The notes below the pieces were generated by a model that made no database searches, was not told the DNA's origin, and saw only the letters and a list, made by a program, of their open reading frames with translations. The translations under genes and the position numbers were made by a program. Positions 15,972 through 44,308 of a stretch of 64,000 nt of DNA are shown here, piece by piece. The stretch spans positions 5,544 through 69,543 of the forward strand of contig NZ_CAKRAS010000005.1 of the NCBI RefSeq assembly GCF_934295145.1. The letters run 5' to 3'. The DNA is from an uncultured Eubacterium sp. GTDB taxonomy: Bacteria; Bacillota; Clostridia; Lachnospirales; Lachnospiraceae. The number at the start of each line of letters is the position of its first letter. The stretch's first letter is position 1.

Positions 15972-16003
15972 AAACAGAAAATGAATAAAGAGGATTGAGT
16001 ACA

Positions 16004-16858: not shown

Positions 16859-16870
16859 AGGAGAAGAACA

Positions 16871-23879: not shown

Positions 23880-23883
23880 GTTG

Positions 23884-25539
23884 ATGGAAGAGAACTATGT
23901 GGATGTAAATATGCAAAGGAATGGTAAAGCGAAAGAGCAGATTCATGCGGCATCACCGAAAAATGCAATTATTCTTGCTGCCGGATATGGCATGCGAATG
24001 GTTCCAATCAATACAGAAGTGAGCAAAGGGCTTCTGGAGATTCACGGGGAACCACTAATCGAAAGGTTGATCCGGCAGCTTCATGAAGCGGAAATATACG
24101 AGATATATATCGTAGTTGGATTTATGAAAGAAAGATATGAATATCTGATTGATGAATATCGGGTGGAGTTGATCGTAAATCCGGAATATACAACGAAAAA
24201 TAACCTGTATTCACTGAAATGTGCAGAAAAATATATTTCAAATACGTATATAGTCCCATGTGATATCTGGTGTGAACATAACCTGTTCCGAAAGCAGGAA
24301 TTACACTCTTGGTACATGGTAAATAATTCTTTAAAACCAGACAGCTGTGTCTTAGTAAACCCAAATATGGAACTGAATCTGATATCAGAGACAGATGCCG
24401 GAAATGGTATGATTGGTATTTCTTATCTGACAGGAAAGGAAGCTCAGCTGGTAAAACAGCGGATAAAAGAGATGTGCAGTACATCCTGTTATACGAGTGC
24501 ATTCTGGGAAGAAACGCTTTATGAAAAAAGAAAAATGATCGTGCCGGCCAGAGTAGTAGATGAAGCGGATGTAGTAGAAATTAATACATTTGAACAATTA
24601 CGGGAGTTGGATAGCGGTTGTGATCAGTTAAAAACAGATGCGATTCAGATTATTGAAGCAGTGTTCCGGGTGTCGCAAAAGGATATAAAGAATATTACTG
24701 TTCTGAAAAAGGGAATGACCAACCGGTCATTTTTATTTGAATGCAAAGAGAAAAAGTATATTATGCGAATCCCCGGTGAGGGGACAGATAAACTGATCAA
24801 CAGGCGTGAGGAAGCAGAGGTTTATCAGAAGATAGCAGATTATCATATATGTGACCGGGTAATTTATATGAATCCGGAGAACGGATATAAAATTACAGAA
24901 TATATGAACTCTGTCAGAAACTGCGATGCAGAGCAGATGGAAGATGTGAAAAAGTGTATGAAAAAATTGCGCGAGTTTCATGAATTAAAACTGAAGGTCA
25001 ATCACGAATTTGATCTGTTTGAACATATTCAGTTTTTTGAACAGTTGTGGGAGGGAAGCCCCTCCGCTTTTAAAGATTATGCGGAGACGAAAAGGAAAGT
25101 ATTTTCGCTGAAATCGTATGTGGAACAGTATTGCGGGCAGAAAGTACTGACGCATATTGACGCTGTTCCGGATAATTTCCTGTTTTGGGAGAAAAATTCA
25201 GAAGAAACTGACATCAGGCTGATTGACTGGGAGTATGCAGCAATGCAGGATCCGCATGTAGATATTGCGATGTTCTGTATTTATGCTATGTATAACAGAA
25301 CACATATTGATCAGACAATCGATGCTTATTTTACAGAGGGGTGTGCAGAAAACATCCGTATAAAAATTTATGCATATATAGCGATATGTGGTTTATTGTG
25401 GAGTAACTGGTGTGAATATAAGCGAAGCCTTGGTGTTGAATTTGGAGAATATTCGCTACGGCAATACAGATATGCAAAAGAGTATTATACGATTGTAGAG
25501 ACTGAGAGAAGAAAAGTGGAGATACAGGAACATGAATAG
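23884..25539 (+). CDS. Bifunctional LicC-like nucleotidyltransferase / LicA-like choline kinase fusion
   Basis: N-terminus has IILAAGYGMRMVPINTEVSKGLL (NTP-transferase G-loop, Arg and Lys retained). C-terminus has the kinase motifs THIDAVPDNFLF (Brenner HxDxxxxN) and LIDWEYA. Confidence 0.75.
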   Translation: MEENYVDVNMQRNGKAKEQIHAASPKNAIILAAGYGMRMVPINTEVSKGLLEIHGEPLIERLIRQLHEAEIYEIYIVVGFMKERYEYLIDEYRVELIVNPEYTTKNNLYSLKCAEKYISNTYIVPCDIWCEHNLFRKQELHSWYMVNNSLKPDSCVLVNPNMELNLISETDAGNGMIGISYLTGKEAQLVKQRIKEMCSTSCYTSAFWEETLYEKRKMIVPARVVDEADVVEINTFEQLRELDSGCDQLKTDAIQIIEAVFRVSQKDIKNITVLKKGMTNRSFLFECKEKKYIMRIPGEGTDKLINRREEAEVYQKIADYHICDRVIYMNPENGYKITEYMNSVRNCDAEQMEDVKKCMKKLREFHELKLKVNHEFDLFEHIQFFEQLWEGSPSAFKDYAETKRKVFSLKSYVEQYCGQKVLTHIDAVPDNFLFWEKNSEETDIRLIDWEYAAMQDPHVDIAMFCIYAMYNRTHIDQTIDAYFTEGCAENIRIKIYAYIAICGLLWSNWCEYKRSLGVEFGEYSLRQYRYAKEYYTIVETERRKVEIQEHE

Positions 25540-26239
25540 AGTAGAAAGAGCAATCATTATGGCTGCGGGAAAAGGAACCCGAATGAGACCGGTAACGCTG
25601 CATACACCAAAGCCATTGGTAAAAGTAAATGGAAAGAGAATGATTGACAGTGTAATTGAAGCACTGCATAAAAATGGAATATCTGAAATTTATATTGTGG
25701 TTGGATATCTGAAAGATCAATTTGAGATATTGCCCAAAGAATATGAAAACGTGAAGCTCATTGAAAATCCATTTTATGACACCTGTAATAATATTTCATC
25801 ATTATATGTGGCAAGAGATTATATAGAAAATGCCATTATATTGGATGGAGACCAGATCATTTACAATGAGAAAATTCTGGCCCCGGAATTTGATAGATCC
25901 GGGTACAATGCAGTTTGGACAGATGACGAGACAGAGGAATGGCTGATGACGGTGGAAAAAGGGATAGTTACTTCATGTAGCAGAACCGGTGGAAAAGGCG
26001 GATGGCAGCTGTATTCCGTATCAAGATGGAACGAAGCAGATGGAAAGCGTCTGAAACATCACCTGGAACTGGAATTTAATGAGAAATATAACCGACAGAT
26101 TTACTGGGATGATGTTGTAATGTTTTGTCATGCGGACGAGTATGAACTGGGTATTTGTCCGATGAACGCAGATGATGTAATTGAAATCGATAATCTGGAG
26201 GAACTGATAGCATTAGATGGATCATATAAAGATATATGA
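25532..26239 (+). CDS. licC: LicC-like CTP:phosphocholine cytidylyltransferase (stand-alone)
   Basis: AIIMAAGKGTRMRPVTLHTPKPLVKVNGKRMID and YIVVGYLKDQFE closely follow the pneumococcal LicC pattern. It overlaps the upstream gene by 8 nt. Confidence 0.7.
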   Translation: MNRVERAIIMAAGKGTRMRPVTLHTPKPLVKVNGKRMIDSVIEALHKNGISEIYIVVGYLKDQFEILPKEYENVKLIENPFYDTCNNISSLYVARDYIENAIILDGDQIIYNEKILAPEFDRSGYNAVWTDDETEEWLMTVEKGIVTSCSRTGGKGGWQLYSVSRWNEADGKRLKHHLELEFNEKYNRQIYWDDVVMFCHADEYELGICPMNADDVIEIDNLEELIALDGSYKDI

Positions 26240-27774
26240 TGAAATGCAGGGGAGGAGAAATGAAGAAGAAAATAGACTGGATGGTCACGTTAGTGCCATT
26301 TATTATAATTGTTGGTATTGCAGTGATTTTGTTTATATGGCCGAGAGAATCCAATGATGTAATACATCAGATAAGATTTTTCCTTGGAGATACACTGGGC
26401 AGCTATTATTTGATTATTGGCTTAGGCGTTTTATTGATATCTGTTTACCTGGCGTTTTCAAAGTATGGAAATATCGTACTGGGCGAACCTGATGAAAAAC
26501 CGAAATATTCATTTTTTGTATGGGGAAGTATGATGTTCACCTGTGGACTGGCAGCGGATATATTATTTTATTCCTTTGCTGAATGGATCATGTATGCAAC
26601 AAATCCGCATATAGCAGACCTTGGACCAGTGCATGAATGGGCAGGGGTATTTCCTTTGTTCCACTGGAGTTTCATTCCATGGGCGTTTTATCTGGTGCTT
26701 GCGGTTGCATTTGGTTTTATGCTCCATGTAAGAAAGCGAAAGCGTCAGAGATATTCAGAGGCATGCCGCCCGGTTATCGGAAAACATGCGGATGGTCTGC
26801 TGGGACGTGTAATAGATATGTTTGCGCTGTTTGCCCTGCTGGCAGGAACAGCGACAACATTCAGCGTTGCAACTCCACTGCTGGCAGAAATTGCAATGCG
26901 GTTATTTCATATTCATGTCAGCCGAACGGTTGTGACGATTATCATTTTGCTGATCACATGTGCTGTCTATACTTATGCAGTGTTACATGGCTTTAAAGGA
27001 ATCAGCTTTCTGGCAAAATTATGTATTTATCTGTTTTTTGGATTACTGGTTGTTGTGCTTGTGTTTGGCGGTCAGGGACGTTTCATTATTGAAAACGGAA
27101 TTCAGTCTCTTGGAAAAATGGTACAGAACTTCATTGGATTAGCGACCTACACAGACCCTGTCAGGGCAAATCATTTTCCACAGGACTGGACCATTTATTA
27201 TTGGGCATACTGGATGGTATGGTGTGTTGCTGCTCCGTTTTTTATTGGCAATATTTCAAAGGGAAGAACGATAAAACAGACAATACTTGGAGGATACGTT
27301 TTTGGTGTTGGCTCAACCATTGTAAGCTTTATCGTGCTGGGCAATTATTCTCTGGGATTGCAGGTAGCAGGAAGAGAAGATTTTATAGCTCAGTTTAAAG
27401 CAAACGGAGATTTGTATGATTTGATCCTTAATATTATACAGACAATGCCTTGTGCACCATTTATTCTGATTCTTACTTTTGTATGTATGATTGCATTTTA
27501 TGCAACATCCTTTGATTCTATAGCGTACACCGCAGCATGCTATAGTTATAAAGAACTTGGAGAAAATGAACATCCGCACACGTTAATTACATTATTATGG
27601 TGCGTTCTGTTGATCGTGTTACCAATTGCGCTTGTTTTTTCAGAAAGTTCTATGGGAAATATTCAGTCAATCAGTATTATTTCGGCTTTTCCAATAGGAA
27701 TCATCATGATCCTGATGATATGGAGCTTTTTTAAAGATGCAAAAAAGTATATCAGCAAAAGTGATACAAAATAG
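26236..27774 (+). CDS. BCCT-family transporter (choline/betaine type)
   Basis: WTIYYWAYWMVWCVAAPFFIGNISKGRTIKQ is the BCCT signature, and the protein has ~12 TM segments. The start is uncertain (26236, 26239 or 26260). Confidence 0.8.
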   Translation: MMKCRGGEMKKKIDWMVTLVPFIIIVGIAVILFIWPRESNDVIHQIRFFLGDTLGSYYLIIGLGVLLISVYLAFSKYGNIVLGEPDEKPKYSFFVWGSMMFTCGLAADILFYSFAEWIMYATNPHIADLGPVHEWAGVFPLFHWSFIPWAFYLVLAVAFGFMLHVRKRKRQRYSEACRPVIGKHADGLLGRVIDMFALFALLAGTATTFSVATPLLAEIAMRLFHIHVSRTVVTIIILLITCAVYTYAVLHGFKGISFLAKLCIYLFFGLLVVVLVFGGQGRFIIENGIQSLGKMVQNFIGLATYTDPVRANHFPQDWTIYYWAYWMVWCVAAPFFIGNISKGRTIKQTILGGYVFGVGSTIVSFIVLGNYSLGLQVAGREDFIAQFKANGDLYDLILNIIQTMPCAPFILILTFVCMIAFYATSFDSIAYTAACYSYKELGENEHPHTLITLLWCVLLIVLPIALVFSESSMGNIQSISIISAFPIGIIMILMIWSFFKDAKKYISKSDTK

Positions 27775-30093: not shown

Positions 30094-30890
30094 GTAAGAA
30101 GAATATAAAAATAATAGTTGCTGCGCATAAGAGATATTGGATGCCGTCGGATGAAATGTATCTGCCGATACATGTAGGTCATGCAATCGCAAAGGAAGAT
30201 ATTGGATATCAGGGTGACGATACCGGCGAAAATATATCTGAGAAAAATGCAAACTATTGCGAATTGACAGGTATTTACTGGGCATGGAAGAATCTTGATG
30301 CAGATTATATTGGCCTGGTACATTACAGACGTTATCTGTCAAACAGGAACAGCGGTTTTCCTGTCTGGTTTAAGGATAAAAAAGAATCTGTTTTAACCTG
30401 GAAAAAGGCGAATCACATTTTGGAACATTATGATGTGATTGTTCCGAAAAAAAGAAATTATTATATAGAGACATTGTATAAGCATTATGAACATACACAT
30501 GATCACAAACATCTGGATATCACAGGAGAAATCATACAGTCTCTTTATCCGGCGTATGAGGAGACTTTTACGAGAATGCTTCAGCGTAAAAGCGGTCATA
30601 TGTTTAATATGTTTATTATGAAAAAAGAACTGTATCATGCGTATTGTGAATGGCTGTTCCCTGTTTTGCAGCAAGTGGAAAAGAAAATTGATACTAGCAA
30701 AATGACGCCGTATGAGGCCCGGTTTATGGGACGAATTAGTGAATTATTACTGGATGTGTGGTTGGAGCATAATCATATTGTATATAAGGAACTGCCCTGG
30801 GTTCAGCTCGGAAAAGAAAACTGGCCAAAGAAAATCAGATATTTCCTTGCGGCAAAATTTAAAAATAGAAAGTATGGACAGAGCTTTTAA
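30090..30890 (+). CDS. DUF4422-type putative glycosyltransferase
   Basis: IKIIVAAHKRY...LPIHVG...NANYCELTGIYWAWKN is the typical DUF4422 N-terminal signature seen in EPS loci. Confidence 0.6.
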   Translation: MSKKNIKIIVAAHKRYWMPSDEMYLPIHVGHAIAKEDIGYQGDDTGENISEKNANYCELTGIYWAWKNLDADYIGLVHYRRYLSNRNSGFPVWFKDKKESVLTWKKANHILEHYDVIVPKKRNYYIETLYKHYEHTHDHKHLDITGEIIQSLYPAYEETFTRMLQRKSGHMFNMFIMKKELYHAYCEWLFPVLQQVEKKIDTSKMTPYEARFMGRISELLLDVWLEHNHIVYKELPWVQLGKENWPKKIRYFLAAKFKNRKYGQSF

Positions 30891-30897
30891 ACCAGTG

Positions 30898-30925
30898 TTG
30901 ACATTTATAAAAAAGAGAGTAAGAT
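30898..30925 (+). promoter_or_regulatory. Candidate promoter for the L,D-transpeptidase gene
   Basis: TTGACA (30898-30903), a 16-nt spacer, then TAAGAT (30920-30925). Confidence 0.35.
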
Positions 30926-30997
30926 TTAGACTTAGAGTTATTTATTGTAAAGAATGGGTGTAAATGTTACAAACATTTTTTGCAGAAAGGTGGGTTT

Positions 30998-32965
30998 ATG
31001 AAATTAAACAAGGCAATCATGGTGCTGGCAACAGCTGCCCTGCTCACGGGTATGTGTTCTGTGCCTGCGTTGGCAAAAGATGCTTCTGCCACTGTACCTG
31101 TGACAGGGACGCAGGAAGAAAAAACGGATGCGGAACAGCAGGAAATGTGGATTCGACACAATGGACATATAGATGATGTCAAAGAGTATGAAGTAGTGAA
31201 AAGTGAGGATACAGACTCTGTTTATCAGAAGATAAAGTATACCTGTACAGAAACGGGAAAGGAATATACCGCTACAGTACATACGGATGAAGCAAAGCAT
31301 ATCTGGAGTGACAAGTACACCATCGATCAACCTGCTACACCGGATCAGAAAGGGACAGAAAGCAAACATTGTACCGATGAAAAATGTGAGGCAGTGAGTG
31401 ATGTAAAAGAAGATGTAGACTGGGTTCCGGTGGCATCTATCTCATTTGGTGTAAAGGAAGTACATGTAACAGATGCCACACCATTTGAACTGGATACAGT
31501 TGTTTCACCGGAAAATGCATCAAACCAGGATCTGATCTGGGAATCTTCTGATCCGGGTGTTATTGCGGTAGATGCACAGACAGGTACCATTACACCGATG
31601 AAAAATGGTACCGCTACGATTACGGCATGGGATTCAGAGAAAAAGGTATCAGCATCCGTTAATGTAACAGCTGACATGGTCAATGGCATTATCAAAAACC
31701 AGGAAGATGGCAATTGGTACTACTATCACAATGGCTTGATTGACCGTACCTATACCAATGTCGCAAAAAATGCAAACGGCTGGTGGTATGTAAAAGATGG
31801 TCAGGTAGATTTTTCTTATACTGGTGTAAAAAGTAATGAAAATGGTTCCTGGCGAATCGTCAACGGAAAAGTAGATTTCAGCTGTAATGATATCGTAAAG
31901 AGTGAAGATGGCTGGTGGTATGTCCGTGGCGGAAAAGTAGATGATAGTCATACTGGTGTAGATAAAAATGCATATGGTTGGTGGCGTGTTGCTAACGGAA
32001 AAGTAGATTTTGACTGCAATAGTGTAGAAAAGAATTCTAATGGCTGGTGGAAAATCACAAATGGAGCTGTAGATTTTTCCTATACCGGAGTAGCAAAAAA
32101 TAGTCTTGGCTGGTGGCGAATTGTCAAAGGTAAAGTAGATTTTGGCTGCAATAGTGTAGAGAAGAATGAGCTTGGCTGGTGGTATATCCGCGGAGGTAAA
32201 GTAGATTTCAGTTATACAGGAGTAGCAAAGAACAGTCTTGGCTGGTGGCGAATCGTCAACGGAAAAGTAGATTTTAATTGTAATAGTGTAGAAAAAAATA
32301 ATCTTGGCTGGTGGTACATCCGCGGAGGTAAAGTAGATTTCAGTTATACAGGAGTAGCAAAGAACAACCTTGGCTGGTGGCGTGTTGCTAACGGAAAAGT
32401 AGACTTTGGCTATAATGGTATTGCGGTAAATAGTTATGGAGCTTGGTATATTCAAGGCGGAAAAGTGGATTTTGGTTACAATGGAAATATGAAGTGGAAT
32501 GGCACTGATTGTTATATTTCAAACGGAAGAGTGACAATGCAGGGCGTGAGCCCACAGATTGCTGCCAGGGCAGCTACCGCATCCAGTGATACAAGTTGGT
32601 TAATTGTTACAGATACGTCTGCTTGCAAGGTAGCTGTTTTTGCAGGGGCACAGGGAAACTGGTCAACTGTTAAATATATTTCCTGTAGTCCGGGTAAACC
32701 TTCTACACCGACAGTAAAAGGAGAATTTAAAGTAACAGGTCGAGGCTTATCCTTTGGAAAGCCAACCTATGATTGCTGGTATTATACACAGTTCTATGGA
32801 GATTATTTATTCCATTCAGTTATTTACAACAAAGGAAGTAAAACAAGTATTCAGGACGGACGTCTTGGTATGCAGTTATCTCATGGATGTGTAAGACTTG
32901 CTTTAAGTGAAGCAAAATGGATCCATGACAATATTCCAAACGGAACAAAAGTAATTGTATTCTAA
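30998..32965 (+). CDS. Secreted L,D-transpeptidase (YkuD) with Big_2 domain and ~13 cell-wall-binding repeats
   Basis: RBS AAAGGTGGG precedes ATG at 30998. Signal peptide is MKLNKAIMVLATAALLTGMCSVPALA. A Big_2-like VSPENASNQDLIWESSDPGVIAVD segment is followed by the repeats. The C-terminus has FHSV...QLSHGCVRL, the YkuD catalytic motif. Confidence 0.8.
   Translation: MKLNKAIMVLATAALLTGMCSVPALAKDASATVPVTGTQEEKTDAEQQEMWIRHNGHIDDVKEYEVVKSEDTDSVYQKIKYTCTETGKEYTATVHTDEAKHIWSDKYTIDQPATPDQKGTESKHCTDEKCEAVSDVKEDVDWVPVASISFGVKEVHVTDATPFELDTVVSPENASNQDLIWESSDPGVIAVDAQTGTITPMKNGTATITAWDSEKKVSASVNVTADMVNGIIKNQEDGNWYYYHNGLIDRTYTNVAKNANGWWYVKDGQVDFSYTGVKSNENGSWRIVNGKVDFSCNDIVKSEDGWWYVRGGKVDDSHTGVDKNAYGWWRVANGKVDFDCNSVEKNSNGWWKITNGAVDFSYTGVAKNSLGWWRIVKGKVDFGCNSVEKNELGWWYIRGGKVDFSYTGVAKNSLGWWRIVNGKVDFNCNSVEKNNLGWWYIRGGKVDFSYTGVAKNNLGWWRVANGKVDFGYNGIAVNSYGAWYIQGGKVDFGYNGNMKWNGTDCYISNGRVTMQGVSPQIAARAATASSDTSWLIVTDTSACKVAVFAGAQGNWSTVKYISCSPGKPSTPTVKGEFKVTGRGLSFGKPTYDCWYYTQFYGDYLFHSVIYNKGSKTSIQDGRLGMQLSHGCVRLALSEAKWIHDNIPNGTKVIVF
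31697..32540 (+). repeat. Coding array of ~20-aa NGWW repeats, 2-unit (A/B) superperiod
   Basis: Units alternate between GWWYIRGGKVDFSYTGVAKN and GWWRIVNGKVDF(G/N/S)CNSVEKN. Neighbouring copies are highly similar at DNA level. Confidence 0.85.
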
Positions 32966-32981
32966 AAAATGTAAGAAGAAA

Positions 32982-33024
32982 ATGTGGATTTTAGATATAG
33001 AAAATCTAAAATCCATATTTTTTG
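32982..33024 (+). terminator. Rho-independent terminator
   Basis: 15-bp stem, atgtggattttagat with atctaaaatccatat (one G-U pair), followed by a T-run. Confidence 0.8.
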
Positions 33025-33029
33025 TGCTC

Positions 33030-33058
33030 TTGAATATTAAAAAAATGTGGGTTATAAT
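33030..33058 (+). promoter_or_regulatory. Candidate sigma-A promoter for the esterase / muramidase / glucosaminidase genes
   Basis: TTGAAT (33030-33035), a 17-nt spacer, then TATAAT (33053-33058). Confidence 0.5.
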
Positions 33059-33115
33059 ATAAAATTAGTTTAGAGTTAATACAATAGATGAATAGGAAAG
33101 GCAAGAAGTGAAGAA

Positions 33116-35608
33116 ATGAAAAATTGGAAAAGACGAATTTCTGCATTACTCTGCGGTCTTATGATTTTGACATTGACAACAGGAACAGTATATGCAGCAG
33201 ATGCTTCTGATGAAACATCAAATGTGACACTGGAGACACAGACCGAAAGCGCAGAGCAGACGGAAGTTGATGAGAGTGAAATTTCAGAACAGTTATTGGA
33301 GCCAAATATAAAAATTCAGGAAAATCAAATAACGCTGCGTTATGATGACAGATATTCCATTTATTCTGATCAGGATCATGAAGAATATAATGACTATAAA
33401 ATTGATCATGTAACAAATTTAGAGAGCAAATCACATCCAGTGAAAACGGGAGAAGTACAGAAGCAGGAATCAGATGAAGTACTTACTCAGACAGATGACA
33501 GTAATGTGAGAGCAAGTGGCGTTGGTACAGCACTTCTGGTTTTGGTTCCAAAGGAAGAAAACAGTGAGGCATTATACGATAAAATTTATGTTCATGTGAC
33601 TGTGGAAGCAGCACCACTGACGATCATGTATCTAATGGGACAGAGTAATATGGAAGGTATGTGTTCTGCTAATACGGGCTATCAACTGAATAAGTCAGTG
33701 GCCTGTGAGCCGGGAACTGTATATTCAACATATGCGCCAACTGTCTGGAACTGGGCAAGAAATATTACAGGAATTAATTTTTCTAAAGTATGTAATGCAG
33801 GAAATGCGGAGGATTTTGTGACTGGTTCAATGAATGGTGACAGTTCTTTATCAGGAAAAACACTGGAATATCCATTAAATACTCTGTCTTCAGAGGGTGA
33901 AGGAAAAACAGGTCCGGATAGCGCACTGGCTTATGAATGGAACCACTTAACAGGCGAAAAAGTCTGGACAGTAAATGTGGCTTGGAGTGATACAGCAATT
34001 GCAAGCTGGCTTCCGGGACAGAGTGTATATGAGAGAGCAATTACGCTCAGCAAACTAGCGCAGAAAGTATACGAAGCAGAAATTACATCCGGACATTACA
34101 CGGAAGGACATCGCCTGATGTATTGGCTCCAGGGAGAAACTGCAGACAGAACGCGAAGTGCATCTGATTATTATAATGATTTCTATACGATGTACAGCAA
34201 TATCACAAAGCAGTTAACCATTGAAAAGTGTGGCATTATTATGCTTCGCTCTTCTGTCGGATCGAAAGAGACCGAGGATGAGCTGGTTATGACTGGACCG
34301 AGAGCAGCGCAGTATGGAATTGGTGGAAGTACATCGTCAAAATTAAATAACGTATATGTAGTGACAAATGATAACGAAGCATGGGTAAGTGACGCCGGTG
34401 TAGGTCAGTATTTTTCAAAATATAATGGTACATTTGATTATCCGATTCGCGATGGATTCAGTAAAGTTCCGACAAGGATCACCGATGTTCATTATGATAT
34501 TCACTATTCTCAGATTGGGCATAATGAAAATGGAATTATGGCTGCAGATGGTATGTATCAGATGATGCAAAAGCATGGCCAGGGAGATGTAACAGTTGAC
34601 TGGCGAGATGCAAATGGAAAAAGTGTAACACAGGTTTATGTGAGACAAAATCATACAACAACTCTGGTAGGAGTGACAACTCCGGTATATGGTGCAAAAA
34701 ATGTAACCTATCGTACAAACGGAAATATTTCCTATGATTCGGAAACCGGTACATTGAAAGGACTGCAGAAAGGCACCGTTGCAACTGTCAGTGCGATTGT
34801 TGGGGGGAAGACGATTCCTCTTTCTGTAACTGTTTTGGATGAATGGGACTATTCAGCAGAATTAGGAGCTTCTTATACGGGATTGTATAAAGATAATGAT
34901 CAGTGGATTTATGTACAAAATGGAAAAGCAGATTTTTCTTATACCGGTTTTGTGCAGAATGAAGATAATTGGTGGTATGTCGAAAATGGCAGAGTGTCTT
35001 TTCTGAAAAAGGATGTTATCAAAGGTGTTGTAAATGGAGAAGAAGGCTGGTGGTTTGTAAAAGACAGTCAGATTCAGTTTGTAGATTCTATTGAGAAAAA
35101 CAGCAACGGCTGGTGGCGGATTGCCAATGGAAAAGTAGACTTCAACTGCAACAGTGTAGAAAAGAATGAACTTGGCTGGTGGTATATCCGAGATGGAAAA
35201 GTAGACTTTGGTTATACAGGAGTAGCTAAAAATAGCAATGGCTGGTGGCGAATTGTCAATGGAAAAGTAGACTTTGGCTGCAACAGTGTAGAAAAGAATG
35301 CCCTTGGCTGGTGGTACATCCAGGGAGGAAAAGTAGACTTTACATATACAGGAGTGGCGAAAAACAGCAATGGCTGGTGGCGAATCGTCAATGGAAAAGT
35401 AGACTTTAGCTGCAACAGTGTAGAGAAAAATGAACTTGGCTGGTGGTATATCCGAGATGGAAAAGTAAATTTTGGATATTATGGAATTGCAAAAAACAGT
35501 AATGGCTGGTGGTATATCCGAGGAGGAAAAGTAGATTTCGGATATAATGGAAATGTATGGTATCATGGTCATAATTACTGGGTTTCAAACGGTTGGGTAA
35601 GAATGTAA
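33116..35608 (+). CDS. Secreted SASA/SGNH-type carbohydrate O-acetylesterase with Ig-like region and ~11 cell-wall-binding repeats
   Basis: Signal peptide is MKNWKRRISALLCGLMILTLTTGTVYA. YLMGQSNMEGM (Ser nucleophile block), YWLQGETAD and DIHYSQIGH are typical of the sialate-O-acetylesterase-like (DUF303) family. The C-terminus carries NGWW repeats. Confidence 0.7.
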   Translation: MKNWKRRISALLCGLMILTLTTGTVYAADASDETSNVTLETQTESAEQTEVDESEISEQLLEPNIKIQENQITLRYDDRYSIYSDQDHEEYNDYKIDHVTNLESKSHPVKTGEVQKQESDEVLTQTDDSNVRASGVGTALLVLVPKEENSEALYDKIYVHVTVEAAPLTIMYLMGQSNMEGMCSANTGYQLNKSVACEPGTVYSTYAPTVWNWARNITGINFSKVCNAGNAEDFVTGSMNGDSSLSGKTLEYPLNTLSSEGEGKTGPDSALAYEWNHLTGEKVWTVNVAWSDTAIASWLPGQSVYERAITLSKLAQKVYEAEITSGHYTEGHRLMYWLQGETADRTRSASDYYNDFYTMYSNITKQLTIEKCGIIMLRSSVGSKETEDELVMTGPRAAQYGIGGSTSSKLNNVYVVTNDNEAWVSDAGVGQYFSKYNGTFDYPIRDGFSKVPTRITDVHYDIHYSQIGHNENGIMAADGMYQMMQKHGQGDVTVDWRDANGKSVTQVYVRQNHTTTLVGVTTPVYGAKNVTYRTNGNISYDSETGTLKGLQKGTVATVSAIVGGKTIPLSVTVLDEWDYSAELGASYTGLYKDNDQWIYVQNGKADFSYTGFVQNEDNWWYVENGRVSFLKKDVIKGVVNGEEGWWFVKDSQIQFVDSIEKNSNGWWRIANGKVDFNCNSVEKNELGWWYIRDGKVDFGYTGVAKNSNGWWRIVNGKVDFGCNSVEKNALGWWYIQGGKVDFTYTGVAKNSNGWWRIVNGKVDFSCNSVEKNELGWWYIRDGKVNFGYYGIAKNSNGWWYIRGGKVDFGYNGNVWYHGHNYWVSNGWVRM
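34873..35605 (+). repeat. Coding array of NGWW repeats (A/B superperiod, same class as 31697-32540)
   Basis: [43 protein letters not shown] recurs, with near-identical DNA copies around 35150 and 35405. Confidence 0.85.
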
Positions 35609-35712
35609 CAGTGAAGGAATGTGGATTATCCAGAGCCCAATATGCTGATTTTAAAGTAATATGCAAAGTGAAAAATGCTCCAGCTACAGAAATGATAGTT
35701 GGAGTATTTTTT

Positions 35713-36759
35713 ATGGAAAGGTTAAGTATGAGTACAGGTGAGCTGATTAGCACTGAACGGTTGCAATATAATAACATTGACTTGATAAAATTCATTATGG
35801 CTTTTGCTGTAGTTGCAATACATACGAATCCGTTGGTTAATTGTAAAAATGACATAGTTCAAATTGTATATAATAATATTGTTAACATGGCAGTACCATT
35901 TTTCTTTTTGACAACCGGTTTTTTACTTTCAGGGAGAATGTCATTTTCGAACAAAACATCAGATATATCTATATTAGGACATTATATAGGAAAAATACTG
36001 AAAATGTATTTTATTTGGATGGTATTATATACCCCGTTAACAATTTATCATGTTTTTGATAAGAACATTTCTCTTAAAAAAGCTATGTCAACATATTTAC
36101 AAGGGATATTTTTTACTGGAGAACAATATAATGCTTGGCCGTTATGGTATTTGCTATCAACCGTATATACATTGTGCATAGTAATATTATTGTTAAAATT
36201 GAATGCTTCAAAAAATAGTTTCTTGATAGTGAGTATAATTTTTTCTGTTATTTCAATTGGAATAAGCTGGATTGCAGGAATTGAAAGCAGTAAATATAGT
36301 GTTGAAATAGTGCAAAATATAATTGCACATACAGTTTATAACGGGCGTATATTCAGAGGAATGATATTTATTCCTATAGGTATGTGCTTCAATTTCCAAA
36401 AAATATCCTATAATATGAATATTTTAATTATGATAAGTAGTTTTTTTCTAAATTGCATTTTAAAGAATTATTTTTTGAGATCATATTTATTGATTTTGAC
36501 AACAGTAAGTTTTTTTGGAATAATTTTAAATTGGAAATTAATGGATCATCCTGTATATCATAAATTAAGAAAGATGAGTACGATTATGTATTTGATTCAT
36601 ATGTATATATGGAGTATCTACTATAAAGTTCTTTATGGAGAAAAAACATACGGATTAGATAGTTTTATTATTACTTCGCTTTGTGGATGTGTTGTGGCAT
36701 TACTTTATTTAAAAGTTATTAATAAATTCAAGATGCGAGCTTTTCACAAGAGAAAATGA
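35713..36759 (+). CDS. Acyltransferase-3 family membrane protein (AT-rich, likely insertion)
   Basis: GGAG lies 8 nt before ATG at 35713. It has YNNIDLIKFIMAFAVVAIHTNPL and a polytopic profile. Composition is visibly more AT-rich than both neighbours. Confidence 0.6.
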   Translation: MERLSMSTGELISTERLQYNNIDLIKFIMAFAVVAIHTNPLVNCKNDIVQIVYNNIVNMAVPFFFLTTGFLLSGRMSFSNKTSDISILGHYIGKILKMYFIWMVLYTPLTIYHVFDKNISLKKAMSTYLQGIFFTGEQYNAWPLWYLLSTVYTLCIVILLLKLNASKNSFLIVSIIFSVISIGISWIAGIESSKYSVEIVQNIIAHTVYNGRIFRGMIFIPIGMCFNFQKISYNMNILIMISSFFLNCILKNYFLRSYLLILTTVSFFGIILNWKLMDHPVYHKLRKMSTIMYLIHMYIWSIYYKVLYGEKTYGLDSFIITSLCGCVVALLYLKVINKFKMRAFHKRK

Positions 36760-36838
36760 TATGTTTAGCTTGTTCCAGTTTATGTATTGAGTTATACTAA
36801 AAAGTATATAGTTGTTTTTAGAAAGATGAGGTTTACAA

Positions 36839-39235
36839 ATGAAAAGAATTGCAGTAATGTGTCTGATTGCTTCTTTGACAATGTCAGTAAGTGGAGTTCC
36901 TGCGTATGCGCGGTCTGTGGTTACTACGGGAAATACAGTTAGCACAGTGGAAAAAACGGCAGCAACACAGGATGAGGAAGAACAGTCAGCCAAGACTGTA
37001 AGTACAGATAAATATCCGGATGACTGGGATGCGGATGATCCGGGAAATGCAAGAGCATACATGCAGCAGCATGGAGATGCAGATAATACAGAAGAATCTA
37101 CTGTGGATGACAGTAATATTGCATTATTCTCTTTGGATAATGTAAATTTAGCTAGAAGCAGCAGTGGTGTGACGACAACGTGGGAAAATTATACGTTAGA
37201 TAATAATGGGAATATCACAGGCTCAAAGACGAATACTTATACACATAATCCGGCAAATACCAATGGAAAAAGTATTGTAGCAGGAATTGATGTGTCTTAT
37301 CATAATGGAAATATCGACTGGAATAAAGTAAAAGCATCTGGTGTGGATTATGCCATGATCAGGGTCGGATACAGAGGATTTTCCGGTGGAACAATTGCAA
37401 CTAGAGGAGACAATAAGTTTAAAACTTATATTGAAGGCGCAAAAGCTGCAGGAATAAAAGTTGGTGTTTATTTCTTTTCACAGGCAATTAATGTGCAGGA
37501 AGCAGAAGAAGAAGCTGAGTGGACATTAAATCATATCAAAGATTATCAGATTGATCTTCCAGTAGTAATAGATTATGAGTATGCCGGAAATACGGATAAG
37601 AATGGAAACTCCCTGGAACGTCTGAATAATGCAAATCTGTCAAAAGCGCAGAAAACTGAAAATGTAACGGCATTTTGTAATAAGGTGACAGCAGCAGGAT
37701 ATCAGGCCATGGTATATTCCAGTTCAAGCTGGCTGGAACATGATCTGGATACCGATGCACTCGGACAGAAGTATGGAGTGTGGATGGCACGTTTTAATAC
37801 CCATTCTTACACAGATTCAGAAAAAGGAAAATTCTATGGTGGAAAAATAGATATCTGGCAGTGTAGCAGCAGAGCCAAAATAGGTGGTATCAGCACTTGT
37901 GTGGATCTTGATTATTTATATGAAGAAAATAACAATAATAAGACGGATATTGTGGAAGATTCGGAGACTGGAGACTGGTATTACACAGTAAATGGAGAGA
38001 GAGACGAGACATACACAGGTGTAGCGAAAACAAGTAAAGGCTGGATCCGGATTGAGAATGGAAAGGCAAATTTTGATTTCCAGGGAATAGCAAGTAATCA
38101 GAATGGAACCTGGTATCTGAAAGATGGAAAGGTAGATTTCGACTATACAGGCTTCGCTCATGTGGGGGGAGACTGGTGGTATGTAGAAAGTGGTCAATTA
38201 AAATACGATAGAACAGATGTCATTGAAGGAACTGTCAATGGGGAATCCGGCTGGTGGTACGTCGTTGGCGGAAAAGTGACCAGAGATACAACCGTAGCAA
38301 AAAACAGCCTTGGATGGTGGCGCATTGAAAACGGAAAAGTAAACTTTAACTTTAATGGAATCGCCAGCAATGAAAACGGAACCTGGTATCTATCCGGAGG
38401 AAAAGTTGACTTTAATTATACCGGTTTTGGCAGTGACGGAACGGACTGGTGGTACGTAGAAAAAGGCCAGGTAAACTACAATAAGACGGATGTCATGAAG
38501 ACGACCATTAACGGCGAGACTGCATGGTGGCATGTAGTCGGAAGTAAAGTGACAAAGGATACAACGGTAGCGAAAAACAGCAATGGCTGGTGGTATATCA
38601 AAGACGGAAAAGTAGACTTTGGATACAATGGATTTGCGCAGAACAGCAATGGTTGGTGGTATTTGGAAAATGGCAAAGTAACATTTCAGAAAAATGATGT
38701 CATTAAGGGTACGGTCAATGAGACGAATGGCTGGTGGCATGTAATCGGAAGTAAAGTGATCTTTGATACAACCGTGGCAAAGAATGGAAATGGCTGGTGG
38801 TATATCAAAAACGGAATGGTTGATTTCACACACAGTGGCGTTGAGAAGAATGAAAACGGCTGGTGGCGCATCGAAAATGGAAAAGTAAACTTTGGATTTT
38901 ATGGCTTTGCAGAAAACAGCAATGGCTGGTGGTATCTGGAAGGCGGCAAAGTAACATTCCGTAAAAATGATGTTATTAAGGGCACAATTGGTGGTGTCAA
39001 TGGCTGGTGGCATGTAGTTGGAAGCAAAGTGACCAAAGATACAACAGTGGCAAAAAACAGCAATGGCTGGTGGTACATCAAGGATGGAATGGTTGATTTT
39101 ACTTATAATGGTATCGCACAGAACCAGAATGGCTGGTGGTATCTGGAAGGCGGCAAAGTAAACTTTGGTTACAATGGAACTGTGACAGCAGACGAAAAAA
39201 ACTATACTGTAAAAAATGGCAAAGTTAATAAATAA
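36839..39235 (+). CDS. Secreted GH25 muramidase (lysozyme) with ~19 cell-wall-binding repeats
   Basis: Signal peptide is [56 protein letters not shown] and VVIDYEY are GH25 blocks. Long NGWW repeats follow. Confidence 0.8.
37961..39232 (+). repeat. Coding array of NGWW repeats, 3-unit superperiod
   Basis: A ~63-66-aa superunit: [69 protein letters not shown]. Confidence 0.85.
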
Positions 39236-39261
39236 TAAAGCGCAGTAAAAGAGGGATACTT

Positions 39262-41997
39262 ATGAGAAAAAAGAATAAGGTAACAGCGGTTATTCTTTCA
39301 TTGTTTCTGAGTGTTGTGATGTTTGCGACACCTTGTCTGGCAGCACAGGCAGATAACGGAAGTATGGTGCTGACTGAGGATGGTCAGGAAGTAAGTCAGC
39401 CGGAAAACAATACAGATGTAACTGAAACAGATCAGAATAACGGTACAAAGGTTGAAGCAGATTCCTCAGATGTAGAAGATGTTTCTAAGTCTGAGGTGGA
39501 AAATCCGGATGTCAGCAGTACGGAAGATGTTGTTGTGGATGATGAGAAGCCGGATGTTTCGGATGTAGAGACAGCGGGAAATCCATCAACAGACAAGTCT
39601 GAAACAGATACACAGGATATCGCAACACAGGAAAATCAGGATGCCGAGGTTGCCGTGCAGGATCTGGAAGTGGAAGAGAAAAGTTTGTCTGGTCAGTATC
39701 TGATTAACTTTAATAAATCCAATAGTTCTTCTACCTATGTATCTTATACAGAATACAATACAGGAAAAAGCGGATATATTAATGGTTTTTATGGTGCGGA
39801 TGCGGCATACCTTGGAACCACAGGAAATTATTATATCTTTATGATGTCCGGTGTGATTGGAAAGGTCAGCAGCAGTGCGGTAACCCTGATTCCGTTCGAA
39901 AATGCAAAGAGTCACAGTTATTATTATGTGGAAAAGGGCAATCTGTATCATAGAATTACGAGAAACTTATCTGGAGCAAGTTATGTTTCAAAACTGAATA
40001 ATGGAAAGGCCCCTTCGTATTTGTCAGCGGGAACGAATTATCTCAGTTACGATGGACATTATTTTTACACGAATTATGCGACAATGGTTTCTGATTATAC
40101 CAGTGACAGTAGAGCACATTCTGTAAATCCGAATATGCCATATTACAATTATTATCAGTTTCTTCCGTTGCGCAGTACAACCTGCTATACCGCAGATGAA
40201 TTAAATACAACCATTAATGCTAAGATTACATCGACATCCAAGATGAAGGATCTGGGCAGTGATTTTGTAAATGATCAGAATACATATGGTGTGAATGCGT
40301 TATTGATGGCTGCAATTGCGGCAAATGAAAGCAGCTGGGGAGACAGCAGTATTGCAAAAAACAAAAATAACCTGTTTGGACTAAATGCAGTGGATGCATC
40401 TCCGTCACAGAGCGCAAATCAGTATGCAAATGTATCGACATGTATTAAAGATTTTGCAGAAACCTATATGTCAAAAAAATATCTGAACCCAAATAATTTC
40501 AGTAAAGGAAATTATCGTGGTGCTTATCTTGGAAATAAGGCAAGTGGTATCAATGTGCAGTATGCGTCAGATCCATACTGGGGAGAAAAGGCGGCAAACT
40601 ATGCTTACTATCTGGGGCAGAAATTGTCATCCAAAGACGAATATCGTTATACGATCGGTATCAAAGATCCGATCAGCTGTGTGAATAAGACACCGTCCAT
40701 GAATCTGAATGTGCGGAATGGAAATACGACTTCTTCTGCGAGACTGTATTATGCAGCAAATTTATATGGTGTAGCGTTCTTATTGAAAGATGGAACAAAT
40801 GTATCGAATGGTTTTTATAAGGTTCAGAGCGATGGCGTATTAAACAGTGGACGAACAGCTATTAACAACAGTACTGGTGTTTATGATTTCAGTGATATGT
40901 ATGCATATACAAGTGCATCTTACATAACGGTTGTAAATTATGGAGATGGAAGCAATAACAATGATGTCATTGACAAGAGCCTGAATGGTGTGATCAAAGC
41001 TGCAGACGGAAACTGGTACTATTATGTAAATGGTGTGATCGACTATACCCATACCGGTGTAGACAAAAATGCCAACGGCTGGTGGCGTGTGGAGAACGGT
41101 AAAGTAAACTTTAACTATGAAGGTGTTGCCAAGAACCAGAATGGCTGGTGGTATCTGAAAGATGGACAAGTTGATTTTACCTATAATGGATTTGCAAGTA
41201 ATGAAAACGGCTGGTGGTATGTAGAAAACGGAAAAGTTACATTTGCAAAAAATGATATCATTAAGGGAATTGTTAAAGGAACAAATGGCTGGTGGCATGT
41301 GGTTGAAAGTCAGGTGACTTTCGATACAACAGTAGCAAAAAACAGTCTTGGCTGGTGGTTTGTCAACAACGGAATGGTCGATTTTTCTCATAATGGTGTA
41401 GAGAAAAACAGCAATGGATGGTGGTACATCAAAGATGGAAAAGTTGACTTCTCCTATCAGGGCTTTGCGCAGAACAGTAATGGCTGGTGGTACCTGGAAG
41501 GCGGAAAAGTTCTATTTTCAAAGAGTGATGTAATGAAAGCAACCATTGGTGGTGTTAATGCATGGTGGTATGTGGTTGGAGGTAAGGTGACTTCTGATAC
41601 GACTGTGGCAAAAAACAGCAATGGCTGGTGGTATATCAAAGATGGAAAAGTAGATTTCTCCTATCAGGGCTTTGCACAGAACAGCAATGGCTGGTGGTAT
41701 CTGGAAGGTGGAAAGGTAACGTTCCAGAAAAATGATGTTGTCAAAGGAGCAGTAGATGATGAGACTGCATGGTGGCATGTCGTTGGAAGCAAAGTGACCT
41801 ACGATAATACAGTAGCAAAAAACAGCAATGGCTGGTGGAAAATTACAAATGGAAAGGTTGATTTCAACTTTACGGGAATTGCATCAAACCAGAATGGCTG
41901 GTGGTATCTGAAGGATGGAAAAGTTGATTTTTCTCATAATGCAACAATTACATCCAACGGAAAAACGTATCAGATCGTTAACGGTCAGGTAAAATAA
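39262..41997 (+). CDS. Secreted GH73 N-acetylglucosaminidase with acidic linker, SH3-like region and ~15 cell-wall-binding repeats
   Basis: Signal peptide is MRKKNKVTAVILSLFLSVVMFATPCLA, followed by a D/E/S/T-rich low-complexity segment. NALLMAAIAANESSWGDSSIAKNKNNLFGL is the GH73 catalytic block. NGWW repeats run to the C-terminus. Confidence 0.75.
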   Translation: MRKKNKVTAVILSLFLSVVMFATPCLAAQADNGSMVLTEDGQEVSQPENNTDVTETDQNNGTKVEADSSDVEDVSKSEVENPDVSSTEDVVVDDEKPDVSDVETAGNPSTDKSETDTQDIATQENQDAEVAVQDLEVEEKSLSGQYLINFNKSNSSSTYVSYTEYNTGKSGYINGFYGADAAYLGTTGNYYIFMMSGVIGKVSSSAVTLIPFENAKSHSYYYVEKGNLYHRITRNLSGASYVSKLNNGKAPSYLSAGTNYLSYDGHYFYTNYATMVSDYTSDSRAHSVNPNMPYYNYYQFLPLRSTTCYTADELNTTINAKITSTSKMKDLGSDFVNDQNTYGVNALLMAAIAANESSWGDSSIAKNKNNLFGLNAVDASPSQSANQYANVSTCIKDFAETYMSKKYLNPNNFSKGNYRGAYLGNKASGINVQYASDPYWGEKAANYAYYLGQKLSSKDEYRYTIGIKDPISCVNKTPSMNLNVRNGNTTSSARLYYAANLYGVAFLLKDGTNVSNGFYKVQSDGVLNSGRTAINNSTGVYDFSDMYAYTSASYITVVNYGDGSNNNDVIDKSLNGVIKAADGNWYYYVNGVIDYTHTGVDKNANGWWRVENGKVNFNYEGVAKNQNGWWYLKDGQVDFTYNGFASNENGWWYVENGKVTFAKNDIIKGIVKGTNGWWHVVESQVTFDTTVAKNSLGWWFVNNGMVDFSHNGVEKNSNGWWYIKDGKVDFSYQGFAQNSNGWWYLEGGKVLFSKSDVMKATIGGVNAWWYVVGGKVTSDTTVAKNSNGWWYIKDGKVDFSYQGFAQNSNGWWYLEGGKVTFQKNDVVKGAVDDETAWWHVVGSKVTYDNTVAKNSNGWWKITNGKVDFNFTGIASNQNGWWYLKDGKVDFSHNATITSNGKTYQIVNGQVK
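41000..41994 (+). repeat. Coding array of NGWW repeats, 3-unit superperiod (same class as 37961-39232)
   Basis: DNA segments ~41398-41520 and ~41604-41725 are close copies ([36 protein letters not shown]). Confidence 0.85.
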
Positions 41998-42011
41998 TTG
42001 AATATAAGCGA

Positions 42012-42048
42012 AAAATGCACTTATATGAATAATAAGTGCATTTTGCTT
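42012..42048 (+). terminator. Rho-independent terminator
   Basis: Perfect 13-bp stem, aaaatgcacttat with ataagtgcatttt, and a 7-nt loop. The 3' arm ends in a T-run. Confidence 0.7.
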
Positions 42049-42129
42049 TACTAACCAGCAAAAAAATGTTACAATTTTGTTAATTAGAGGAAAAAACAGG
42101 TAAAGCTTTTCAGGAAGGAAAATAGAAAT

Positions 42130-43029
42130 ATGAATACTACATTAGTGATTATGGCCGCAGGAATTGGATCCAGATTTGGTGGTGGAGTAAAACAGCTTAC
42201 TCCGGTAGGTCCAAATGGTGAGATTATTATAGATTACTCTATTCATGATGCACTGGAGGCTGGTTTTAATAAAATCGTTTTTATCATTCGTAAAGATATC
42301 GAGGCAGATTTCAAAGAAGTCATTGGTGATCGTATCGAGAAGATCTGTGATGTGGAATATGTATTCCAGTCACTGGATGATCTGCCGGAAGGCTTTGAAA
42401 AGCCGGCAGACCGTACAAAACCATGGGGAACCGGACAGGCAGTAAGATGCTGCAAAGGTATCGTTAATGAGCCGTTTGCTGTCATTAATGCAGATGATTA
42501 CTATGGAAAAGAAGCATTTGTGAAAGTGCATGATTATCTGGTAAATTGTGGCGATACAAAATATCAGTATTGCATGGCCGGCTTTATCCTTGATAATACA
42601 CTTAGCGATAACGGAACGGTTACCAGAGGTGTGTGCAAAGTAGATGACCAGGAAATGCTTGAAAAAATCGTAGAGACAAGTGGAATTGCCCGCGGCGCAG
42701 ACGGAATTGTCCGTGATGAGAATGGAAATGAGATTCCATCCGGAACACATGTATCCATGAATATGTGGGGTGTGACACCGGAGTTCTTGGATGTGCTGGA
42801 TAAAGGCTTTGCAGAATTTCTTGCAAAGGTTGAGCCGGGCAATATCAAAGCAGAGTATCTGCTTCCAACTATTATTGGCGATATGCTTGCAAATGGCGAA
42901 GTGTCTGTAAAAGTACTTGAGACACAGGATAAATGGTTTGGTGTAACCTATCAGGAAGACCGTCAGACGGTAGTAGACGCATTTGCAGAACTGATCGCAA
43001 ACGGAGTATACAAGACACCGTTATTTTAA
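42130..43029 (+). CDS. Sugar-phosphate nucleotidyltransferase (NTP_transferase superfamily, substrate unknown)
   Basis: LVIMAAGIGSRFGGGVKQL G-loop, KPWGTGQAV and VINADDYYG blocks. Confidence 0.6.
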   Translation: MNTTLVIMAAGIGSRFGGGVKQLTPVGPNGEIIIDYSIHDALEAGFNKIVFIIRKDIEADFKEVIGDRIEKICDVEYVFQSLDDLPEGFEKPADRTKPWGTGQAVRCCKGIVNEPFAVINADDYYGKEAFVKVHDYLVNCGDTKYQYCMAGFILDNTLSDNGTVTRGVCKVDDQEMLEKIVETSGIARGADGIVRDENGNEIPSGTHVSMNMWGVTPEFLDVLDKGFAEFLAKVEPGNIKAEYLLPTIIGDMLANGEVSVKVLETQDKWFGVTYQEDRQTVVDAFAELIANGVYKTPLF

Positions 43030-43117
43030 CCAGATTAAGCAAGTAGCGTAAGAGGATTGTGAATATCTGTCAGAAGTTCAGAAGCAAAATCATAATAAAA
43101 TATTTATCAAATTAGAA

Positions 43118-43158
43118 ACACTTCATGCTGTAGAAATTACAGTGTGGGGTGTTTTTTT
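43118..43158 (+). terminator. Candidate terminator (imperfect hairpin + T7)
   Basis: acac...ctgta gaaat tacag...ggtgt, followed by ttttttt. Confidence 0.4.
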
Positions 43159-43276
43159 GATAGGAAATTACGTTGAATTGAAAAGTGAATTCTATCTGGT
43201 AGTATAAAGATCCTCTTTTTGTTAAATACTGTAACAAATAATCTAAGTAAAACATTATGATAAGGAGACGGAAATT

Positions 43277-44308
43277 ATGGCAACACAAATCGGACGCCAA
43301 AGCATCATGTTTGAAAATCCACCCTGGATCATCAGCAGTGGCTGCGTGGCGGGAACAAAGGAAGCAGAGGGACCTATCGGACATGAGATCGACTTAGTAG
43401 GCGAAGATGATAATTTTGGGTGTGATATCTGGGAAGAAGCGGAGAGTACATTGCAAAAAGAAGCGTTGACCATCGCATTGGGAAAAGCAGGATTAAAAGC
43501 AGAAGATCTGCGGTATCTGTTCGCCGGGGATTTGCTTGGACAGTCTATGGCAACATCCTTCGGCCTGCAGCAGTTCAACATTCCATTATTTGGATTATAC
43601 GGTGCCTGCTCAACGGCAGGAGAGTCATTGGCGCTTGCCGCAATGACAGTGGCCGCGGGCTACGCAGATCTGGCAGGAGCGGTGACTTCCAGCCATTTTG
43701 CCAGTGCGGAGAAGCAGTTTCGCTTTCCCCTGGAATATGCCAGTCAAAGGCCCTTATGTACTACCTGGACGGTTACCGGTTCCGGAGCCTTTGTACTTGG
43801 CAGAGACAGATCAGAACATGAGTATGATGTCTGCATCACTGGAATCACACCGGGCAAAATCGTGGATTATGGCGTCCGGGATTCCATGAACATGGGAGCA
43901 GCTATGGCCCCGGCGACGGCTGCCTGCATTGCGGCGCATCTGGAGGATTTCTCAAGAAGTCCATCCTACTATGACAAGATCATTACCGGTGATCTGGGAG
44001 CGGTAGGGCGGGAAATTCTCATTGATCTGTTGCGGCAGAAAAATATTGAGATCGGAAGCTTTCATACCGACTGTGGATTGGAAATCTTTGATAATGAGCG
44101 CCAAGGTACAGGGAGTGGTGGAAGTGGCTGTGGCTGTGCCGCAGTGACGCTAAGCGCACATTTTCTGCCGATGCTGTGGCGCGGAGAACTGAAGCGGGTA
44201 CTATTTGTACCGACAGGCGCATTACTGTCTAAAATCAGCTTTAATGAGGGCGAGAACGTGCCTGGAATTGCTCATGCGGTGGTGTTAGAAGCGGTAGAAA
44301 GGAAGTGA
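43277..44308 (+). CDS. spoVAD: Stage V sporulation protein AD
   Basis: The N-terminus FENPPWIISSGCVAGTKEAEGPIG and a thiolase-like fold pattern (GACSTAGESL, GSGGSGCGCAAV) are typical of SpoVAD. Confidence 0.8.
   Translation: MATQIGRQSIMFENPPWIISSGCVAGTKEAEGPIGHEIDLVGEDDNFGCDIWEEAESTLQKEALTIALGKAGLKAEDLRYLFAGDLLGQSMATSFGLQQFNIPLFGLYGACSTAGESLALAAMTVAAGYADLAGAVTSSHFASAEKQFRFPLEYASQRPLCTTWTVTGSGAFVLGRDRSEHEYDVCITGITPGKIVDYGVRDSMNMGAAMAPATAACIAAHLEDFSRSPSYYDKIITGDLGAVGREILIDLLRQKNIEIGSFHTDCGLEIFDNERQGTGSGGSGCGCAAVTLSAHFLPMLWRGELKRVLFVPTGALLSKISFNEGENVPGIAHAVVLEAVERK

Follow-up and report, generated by a model that had tools for sequence, protein, structure and literature searches.

PF21540 repeat arrays as probable wall anchors of four secreted cell-wall enzymes in a Lachnospiraceae surface-gene block

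The stretch of DNA analysed here (the window: 64 kb from an uncultured Eubacterium sp. of the Lachnospiraceae) encodes, between positions 30998 and 41997, four secreted cell-wall enzymes that carry arrays of one and the same short repeat, Pfam PF21540 (Choline_bind_4, 'choline-binding repeat'); a fifth gene, at 955-2613 on the minus strand, carries it too. We infer that these arrays are non-covalent wall-anchoring modules, and hold this to be highly probable. Phosphocholine is the best guess for their ligand, because the surrounding block encodes a LicC-LicA fusion, a separate LicC, a BCCT transporter and two LicD proteins; we put this identification at even or a shade above. The statement as a whole, wall anchoring with the phosphocholine step included, is slightly favoured.

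All five proteins match PF21540: the E-values lie between 1e-31 and 1e-69 when the whole protein is scored and reach 2e-75 when only the repeat region is. The full-length proteins score 106.5-227.4 bits, and isolated repeat regions as much as 246 bits, against a gathering threshold of 27 bits. A hidden Markov model (HMM) made from the window's own repeat units and run on the open reading frames (ORFs) of the window matches these five and no others, confirming the initial annotation, which had read the repeat as common to the four enzymes and to the gene at 955. The repeat is curated in Pfam, and the idea of an unrecognised family is therefore rejected. No NCBIfam model matches the repeat proteins. 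Chance or low complexity as the source of the repeats is likewise rejected, because of these E-values and the confidently folded model described below.

Scored, as the initial annotation had suggested, with the classical choline-binding repeat family, PF01473, or with its multi-repeat siblings PF19085 and PF19127, three of the window's repeat regions give no match even at E <= 10. Cpl-1 of phage Cp-1, an experimentally established choline-binding lysin that served as positive control, scores 89.6 bits with PF01473 and also matches PF19127 and PF19085, but not PF21540; at the HMM level each of the two families thus excludes the other. Aligned directly, the Cpl-1 module and the window's repeat are only marginally similar (BLASTP E 0.003; hhalign E 3e-4, probability 39%). 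The register of the alignment places WW(Y/R/H) over WYY and an aliphatic or Phe strand-1 residue over the Trp of the classical GW, which is the register proposed when the unit was first described as a divergent relative of the choline-binding repeat; that description fits a sibling family with, as modelled, the same solenoid. The window proteins are members of PF21540 and share its 21-22-residue unit. Searches of the PDB by phmmer with a repeat region and with a 52-unit profile returned chance matches only (a nanobody, an SH3 domain).

Region 30998-41997 consists of five plus-strand genes, four with repeats and one without. The L,D-transpeptidase (30998-32965) has a signal peptide, a Big_2 domain (1e-6), a central repeat array at 31697-32485 (PF21540 4.9e-55) and a C-terminal YkuD domain (4.4e-12), and its translation contains the SHGCVR catalytic motif. 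The SASA/SGNH-type carbohydrate esterase (33116-35608; SASA 3.9e-11, PF21540 4.4e-48, motif GQSNMEG) bears its array at the C-terminus (~34886-35551), as do the GH25 muramidase (36839-39235; Glyco_hydro_25 2.2e-32, PF21540 1.7e-69, motif DVS...DYE, array ~38024-39178) and the GH73 N-acetylglucosaminidase (39262-41997; Glucosaminidase 7.3e-15, PF21540 2.7e-63, motif ANESSWG, array ~41002-41940). Signal-peptide-like N-terminal sequences can be read from the translations of all four, and Pfam domains and motifs agree in bearing out the catalytic identities first assigned. The enzymes had also been called consecutive, which they are not: a repeat-less gene for a membrane acyltransferase (Acyl_transf_3; 35593-36759, PF01757 9.1e-15) intervenes between the esterase and GH25. 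It is 97-98% identical to its counterparts at loci L001 and L003, and its product is the probable O-acetylation partner of the SASA esterase. A promoter and terminator scan of 30700-43300 yielded counts equal to those of shuffled sequence and was uninformative.

The transpeptidase array holds 11 units and one degenerate unit in strict 22-residue period, as seen with our own HMM and as a 66/132-nucleotide periodicity of the DNA; there are 10 units in the esterase, 17-18 in GH25, 13 and one degenerate in GH73, and about seven (1966-2505) in gene 955-2613. The original estimate was 9-19 copies apiece; the four enzymes have about 10-18. The consensus, AKNxNGWWYIxxGKVDFxxxGx, agrees with the motif written down at that time, while the period of 22 residues (66 nucleotides) replaces the 20-21 then given and is overlaid by higher-order super-repeats. 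In the transpeptidase and esterase two unit types alternate, making a super-repeat of 44 residues; in GH25 and GH73 four unit types follow each other in a cycle with spacing 22-22-26-21, making one of 91, and the 26-residue long unit that is every fourth unit there is absent from the transpeptidase and esterase. The arrays pair in the same way at the DNA level (transpeptidase with esterase, up to 80%; GH25 with GH73, ~75%). Every second unit of the transpeptidase and esterase arrays also has a Cys (DFxCNSV), giving four and three regularly spaced Cys residues in the stretches 31800-32400 and 35090-35420, respectively; the GH25 and GH73 arrays have no such Cys, and family-wide that position is Cys in 8% of units.

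Residue statistics were compiled from 740 units drawn from 120 homologues. Positions N3, G6, W7, W8, G13, K14, V15 and F17 are near-invariant, W7, W8 and F17 each being present in at least 93% of units, and Y9 and Y19 are common. Set against the PF01473 repeats, including those of pneumococcus, the window's unit has 22 residues instead of 20, lacks the strand-1 Trp, has WW for WY, and adds F17 and K14 as new near-invariant residues.

An AlphaFold2 model of the GH73 array (40984-41994, 337 residues, from a 40-sequence alignment) has a mean predicted local distance difference test score of 97.3 and consists entirely of beta-hairpins, whose strands are longer in the 26-residue units. Foldseek comparison with the PDB places it closest to the CROPs of TcdB, TcsH, TcsL and TcdA (E 8e-13 to 1e-8), together with the choline-binding modules of LytB (3.7e-11), Pce (3e-10), CbpJ, LytC and LytA (probability 1.00) and the glucan-binding domains of glucansucrases. 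The modelled fold is that of the cell-wall-binding-repeat (CWB1) beta-hairpin solenoid superfamily, some of whose members bind choline and others glycans, and because the superfamily includes both, the fold leaves the ligand undecided. The pneumococcal choline-binding proteins just named, and Cpl-1, would have the beta-hairpin solenoid in common with the window's array. The CROPs alternate short and long repeats, much as GH25 and GH73 do with their 22-22-26-21 spacing, but they bind host glycans, are borne on toxins and are 10-15% identical, while the partners of the window's repeats are peptidoglycan enzymes. The glucan-binding domains of GH70 glucansucrases (GtfD, alternansucrase, DSR-E/M) fall in the same solenoid superfamily; their ligand is alpha-glucan, and there is no match between them and the window's repeat at the sequence level.

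The company that the repeat keeps argues for wall anchoring. A word-indexed search finds more than 1,400 PF21540 proteins, almost all joined to wall-active domains (YkuD, GH25, NlpC/P60, Amidase_2/3, CHAP, M23, polysaccharide deacetylase, SGNH, CAP, transglutaminase-like, sortase), and exhaustive phmmer against 1.84 billion cluster representatives returns 2,891 at E <= 1e-3, of which 886 are at E <= 1e-30, so that the Pfam family amounts to ~2,900 clusters at 50% identity. The named sources are Eubacterium sp., Lachnospiraceae bacterium and Clostridiales bacterium, and the Lachnospiraceae are already known to be among the main holders of CWB1-type repeats (review PMC5817068). PF21540 is named in no paper that we found, and the papers found to mention Choline_bind_4 are surveys of endolysins, among them one that describes a gut-phage lysin composed of GH25, thirteen Choline_bind_4 units and then YkuD; tblastn against 50,697 cultured phage genomes gave no match. 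Use in gut phage endolysins and exchange with another presumed wall repeat, ChW (PF07538), also favour wall anchoring.

That exchange is seen in the GH73 orthologues. In eight of the nine loci scanned the orthologue, from Coprococcus comes, Dorea, Hespellia and other Lachnospiraceae, has 5-12 ChW repeats in place of PF21540 and at the same C-terminal position; the orthologue at L005 has a glucosaminidase domain only. ChW of Clostridia is unrelated in sequence to PF21540, with a unit of ~35-50 residues. It occurs mostly in endolysins and is thought to mediate cell-wall interaction (review PMC5817068). The presumed wall-anchor module has been swapped between Lachnospiraceae lineages, as expected of an exchangeable, lineage-tuned anchor. 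A contig binned as Parabacteroides distasonis (L012) also encodes a Lachnospiraceae-type GH73-ChW protein, and is probably mis-binned or contaminating.

In closer relatives the set of enzymes is syntenic. The catalytic part of GH73 is 92% identical to that of an uncultured Eubacterium sp. metagenome-assembled genome, in which synteny is complete from the galactofuranosyltransferase-like gene to IMPDH (IMPDH being 100% identical). Eubacterium ramulus strain 21 has the order esterase, acyltransferase, GH25, GH73, nucleotidyltransferase, SpoVAD, IMPDH, with GH25 and GH73 at 68% and 66% identity, compared with 97% for the acyltransferase and 96% for IMPDH. This mosaic divergence across 33116-41997 suggests recombination or diversifying selection on exposed enzymes. 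The catalytic part of the esterase is 87.15% identical to L001 and to L003 alike.

The genes presumed to make the ligand do lie in the same block, as the initial annotation had it. At 23815-25539 on the plus strand, like the other genes of this set, is a LicC-LicA fusion, phosphocholine cytidylyltransferase-like and choline kinase (Pfam Choline_kinase and NTP_transf_3; PDB matches to LicA, 4R77, at 6e-31 and LicC, 1JYK, at 3e-25). It is followed by a stand-alone LicC-like CTP:phosphocholine cytidylyltransferase (25532-26239; 1JYK at 1.5e-33 over its full length) and by a BCCT-family (betaine/carnitine/choline) transporter, the presumed choline importer (26236-27774; Pfam BCCT 1.5e-123). Two LicD-family phospho-alcohol transferases are encoded upstream (9469-10296, Pfam LicD 9.3e-40; 15995-16858, 1.1e-42), and the lic genes are placed among Wzx flippases, a Wzy-like polymerase, glycosyltransferases and acyltransferases. 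Judged by homology only, the set covers every step between external choline and a polymer decorated with phosphocholine. Choline would enter by the BCCT transporter, be phosphorylated by the LicA domain and activated to CDP-choline by the LicC domains, and one or both LicD proteins would transfer phosphocholine to polysaccharide. Each of the four enzymes would be exported by Sec, and its 10-18 beta-hairpins would form an elongated solenoid that binds, at many points, a determinant repeated along a secondary wall polymer; transpeptidase, O-acetyl esterase, muramidase and glucosaminidase would thereby be held on the organism's own peptidoglycan. The parallel is with pneumococcus, which likewise fuses its repeats to an amidase, muramidase, glucosaminidase or phosphoesterase, and whose lic locus has LicA, LicC and LicD homologues of those found here; the window differs from it in having BCCT rather than LicB and in the fusion of LicC to LicA.

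Several observations weigh against phosphocholine as the ligand. The classical choline cage is made by a strand-1 Trp, a strand-2 Trp and a Tyr of the next hairpin, plus Met or Leu. The strand-2 Trp is retained as W7 (93%, in the hhalign register against Cpl-1), but the strand-1 position is V, I, F or L and never Trp across the 740 units, which extends to the whole family the earlier remark that the leading Trp is replaced and a WW pair appears; the position of the second cage Tyr holds Tyr in 57% of units and a basic residue, Arg or Lys, in ~20%. A rearranged aromatic cage in the PF21540-type unit is a fair inference. The top structural matches of the GH73 array are glycan-binding CROPs. LicD enzymes can transfer other phospho-alcohols, and a second phospho-alcohol pathway is encoded at 12314-17659, comprising a TagF-like glycerophosphotransferase, a TagD-like cytidylyltransferase fused to a Gfo/Idh/MocA oxidoreductase, the second LicD, a GNAT protein and a class V aminotransferase (E 2e-155 to PDB 3F0H); the caution, expressed at the outset, that the ligand might be another decoration is to that extent justified. 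No phosphoenolpyruvate mutase is present, which makes aminoethylphosphonate an unlikely product of this pathway. In Dorea a LicD gene also lies near the ChW-type GH73. Searches of the PDB and the literature yielded no solved structure or binding assay for any PF21540 member. The literature also yielded nothing specific that links choline-binding or phosphorylcholine to Lachnospiraceae or Clostridia and nothing on the walls of the E. ramulus group, and a survey of phosphorylcholine genes does not mention Clostridia.

The main rival reading, possible but distinctly less probable than wall anchoring through phosphocholine, is one in which the repeats do anchor to the wall but recognise something else, either the glycan backbone of the locus polysaccharide (for example a chain with galactofuranose; a galactofuranosyltransferase-like protein is also encoded here) or the second phospho-alcohol decoration, so that 'choline-binding' in the Pfam name would be a homology-derived misnomer. 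It gains from the lack of conservation at two of the three classical aromatic cage positions, from the reciprocal exclusion of PF01473 and PF21540, from the ranking of carbohydrate-binding CROPs and glucan-binding domains among the best Foldseek matches and the CROPs-like alternation of short and long units in GH25 and GH73, and from the TagF-like, TagD-like, aminotransferase, GNAT and galactofuranosyltransferase-like proteins of the locus. It has to contend with a full set for choline uptake, activation and transfer in the same block, and with a unit that stays very aromatic (W7, W8, F17, Y9, Y19), which makes a differently built cation-pi site plausible. The structural likeness to toxin CROPs and glucan-binding domains could be taken further, to a reading in which the arrays serve mainly as adhesins or lectins that bind host or dietary glycans or other cells; this we regard as very improbable, since the repeat is joined overwhelmingly to peptidoglycan-active enzymes, whose substrate must be the wall of the producer itself, since it also occurs in phage endolysins, and since orthologues exchange it for ChW, another presumed wall repeat (PMC5817068).

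A separate question, of genome organisation only and compatible with wall anchoring through phosphocholine, is whether the lic and polysaccharide genes lie beside the repeat-bearing enzymes by coincidence, surface genes being prone to cluster, without the block forming one functional system. We give this somewhat less than an even chance. Linkage was looked up within 10 kb on either side of three PF21540 proteins and three LicCA homologues, a distance that bears on gene neighbourhood only. The LicCA-LicC-BCCT trio occurs widely in Clostridia as a cassette, with more than 8,000 homologues (most LicC-LicA homologues carry an extra N-terminal HTH_24 domain that the window's protein does not have) and recurs, for example, at L021 (10001-14024) and L022 (10001-14038), the L022 cassette adjoining gyrA and not a polysaccharide locus. 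The lic cassettes in three other Clostridia contigs have no PF21540 gene within 10 kb, a further point against tying the repeat to choline, and two of the PF21540 enzymes elsewhere adjoin ribosomal or metabolic genes. No general linkage of lic genes to PF21540 genes appeared in these look-ups, and the ~42-kb surface system that had been proposed is self-contained only loosely and is not conserved as a unit. In pneumococcus, too, the genes for choline-binding proteins are scattered and need not lie near those that make the ligand. On the other side stand 32 surface genes, all co-directional, between 3014 and 43029 of the window, and the unrelated contig L015, in which a GH25-PF21540 gene with an Acyl_transf_3 gene adjoins a polysaccharide locus.

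The fifth repeat-bearing gene (955-2613, minus strand; PF21540 2.9e-31 over ORF 955-2526) appears to be damaged as assembled. An ATG near 2626 starts a signal-peptide-like sequence, MKFFKKVTLLLVIMVSC..., read from the DNA, that reaches a stop after 29 codons; the ORF with the repeats and phosphodiesterase (~958-2613) is in a different frame and has no signal peptide of its own. Because the signal-peptide ATG is out of frame, the gene is taken to be frameshifted or 5'-truncated; the apparent cause, at 2560-2630, is a frameshift, the loss of 5' sequence or an indel introduced in assembly beside a T6A6 run. The C-terminal domain (958-1950) has no Pfam match, but shows calcineurin-type metallophosphoesterase motifs and matches PDB 2DXL/2ZO9 ('Phosphohydrolase', E 4e-5), which we take to be the glycerophosphodiesterase GpdQ. 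In concept a repeat-bearing phosphodiesterase recalls pneumococcal Pce, and by that analogy this one could trim phospho-alcohol decorations; its calcineurin/GpdQ-type fold differs from that of Pce, which is a metallo-beta-lactamase fold.

As to the remainder of the window, which has 40% G+C, the surface-biogenesis block spans ~3 to 43 kb and is followed by housekeeping genes (IMPDH, glutamine synthetase, DAP epimerase, DHDPS, BipA, FBPase). Directly downstream of GH73 is a nucleotidyltransferase gene (42130-43029). Its conservation is 94-99% within the E. ramulus group and ~60% in Coprococcus and Dorea, two genera in which the gene is again near GH73. Each repeat array contains a long antisense ORF (minus strand, 31649-32455, 34862-35572, 38390-39013 and 40840-41391; 183-268 codons, 'PPA'-rich); these are not genes but by-products of the periodic codon pattern (TGGTGG in reverse).

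The repeat family already has its curated entry and gut Clostridia commonly show this architecture, and the locus is in that sense a repetition of the pneumococcal paradigm, a new example of a known arrangement. If the phosphocholine route holds, it would be the Lachnospiraceae counterpart of the pneumococcal lic/choline-binding-protein system, and in compact form it brings together a predicted pathway for phosphocholine decoration and four enzymes, possibly five, that share one repeat family. A more tentative proposal, which we consider doubtful on present evidence, is that PF21540 is a functionally distinct solenoid branch, in which the WW pair, F17 and K14/D16 together make a site that would accommodate another phospho-alcohol or a glycan, or phosphocholine through a new cage geometry; either outcome, if true, would establish a new pairing of anchor and ligand in abundant gut Firmicutes and the lysins of their phages. 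The Lachnospiraceae are dominant commensals of the human gut, and their display of surface enzymes is poorly studied. The PF21540 ligand, once established, would validate or correct a Pfam annotation carried to thousands of proteins, and would show those who engineer lysins which binding module is suited to these bacteria. It also bears on the exposure by gut commensals of phosphocholine, an epitope for natural antibodies and C-reactive protein.

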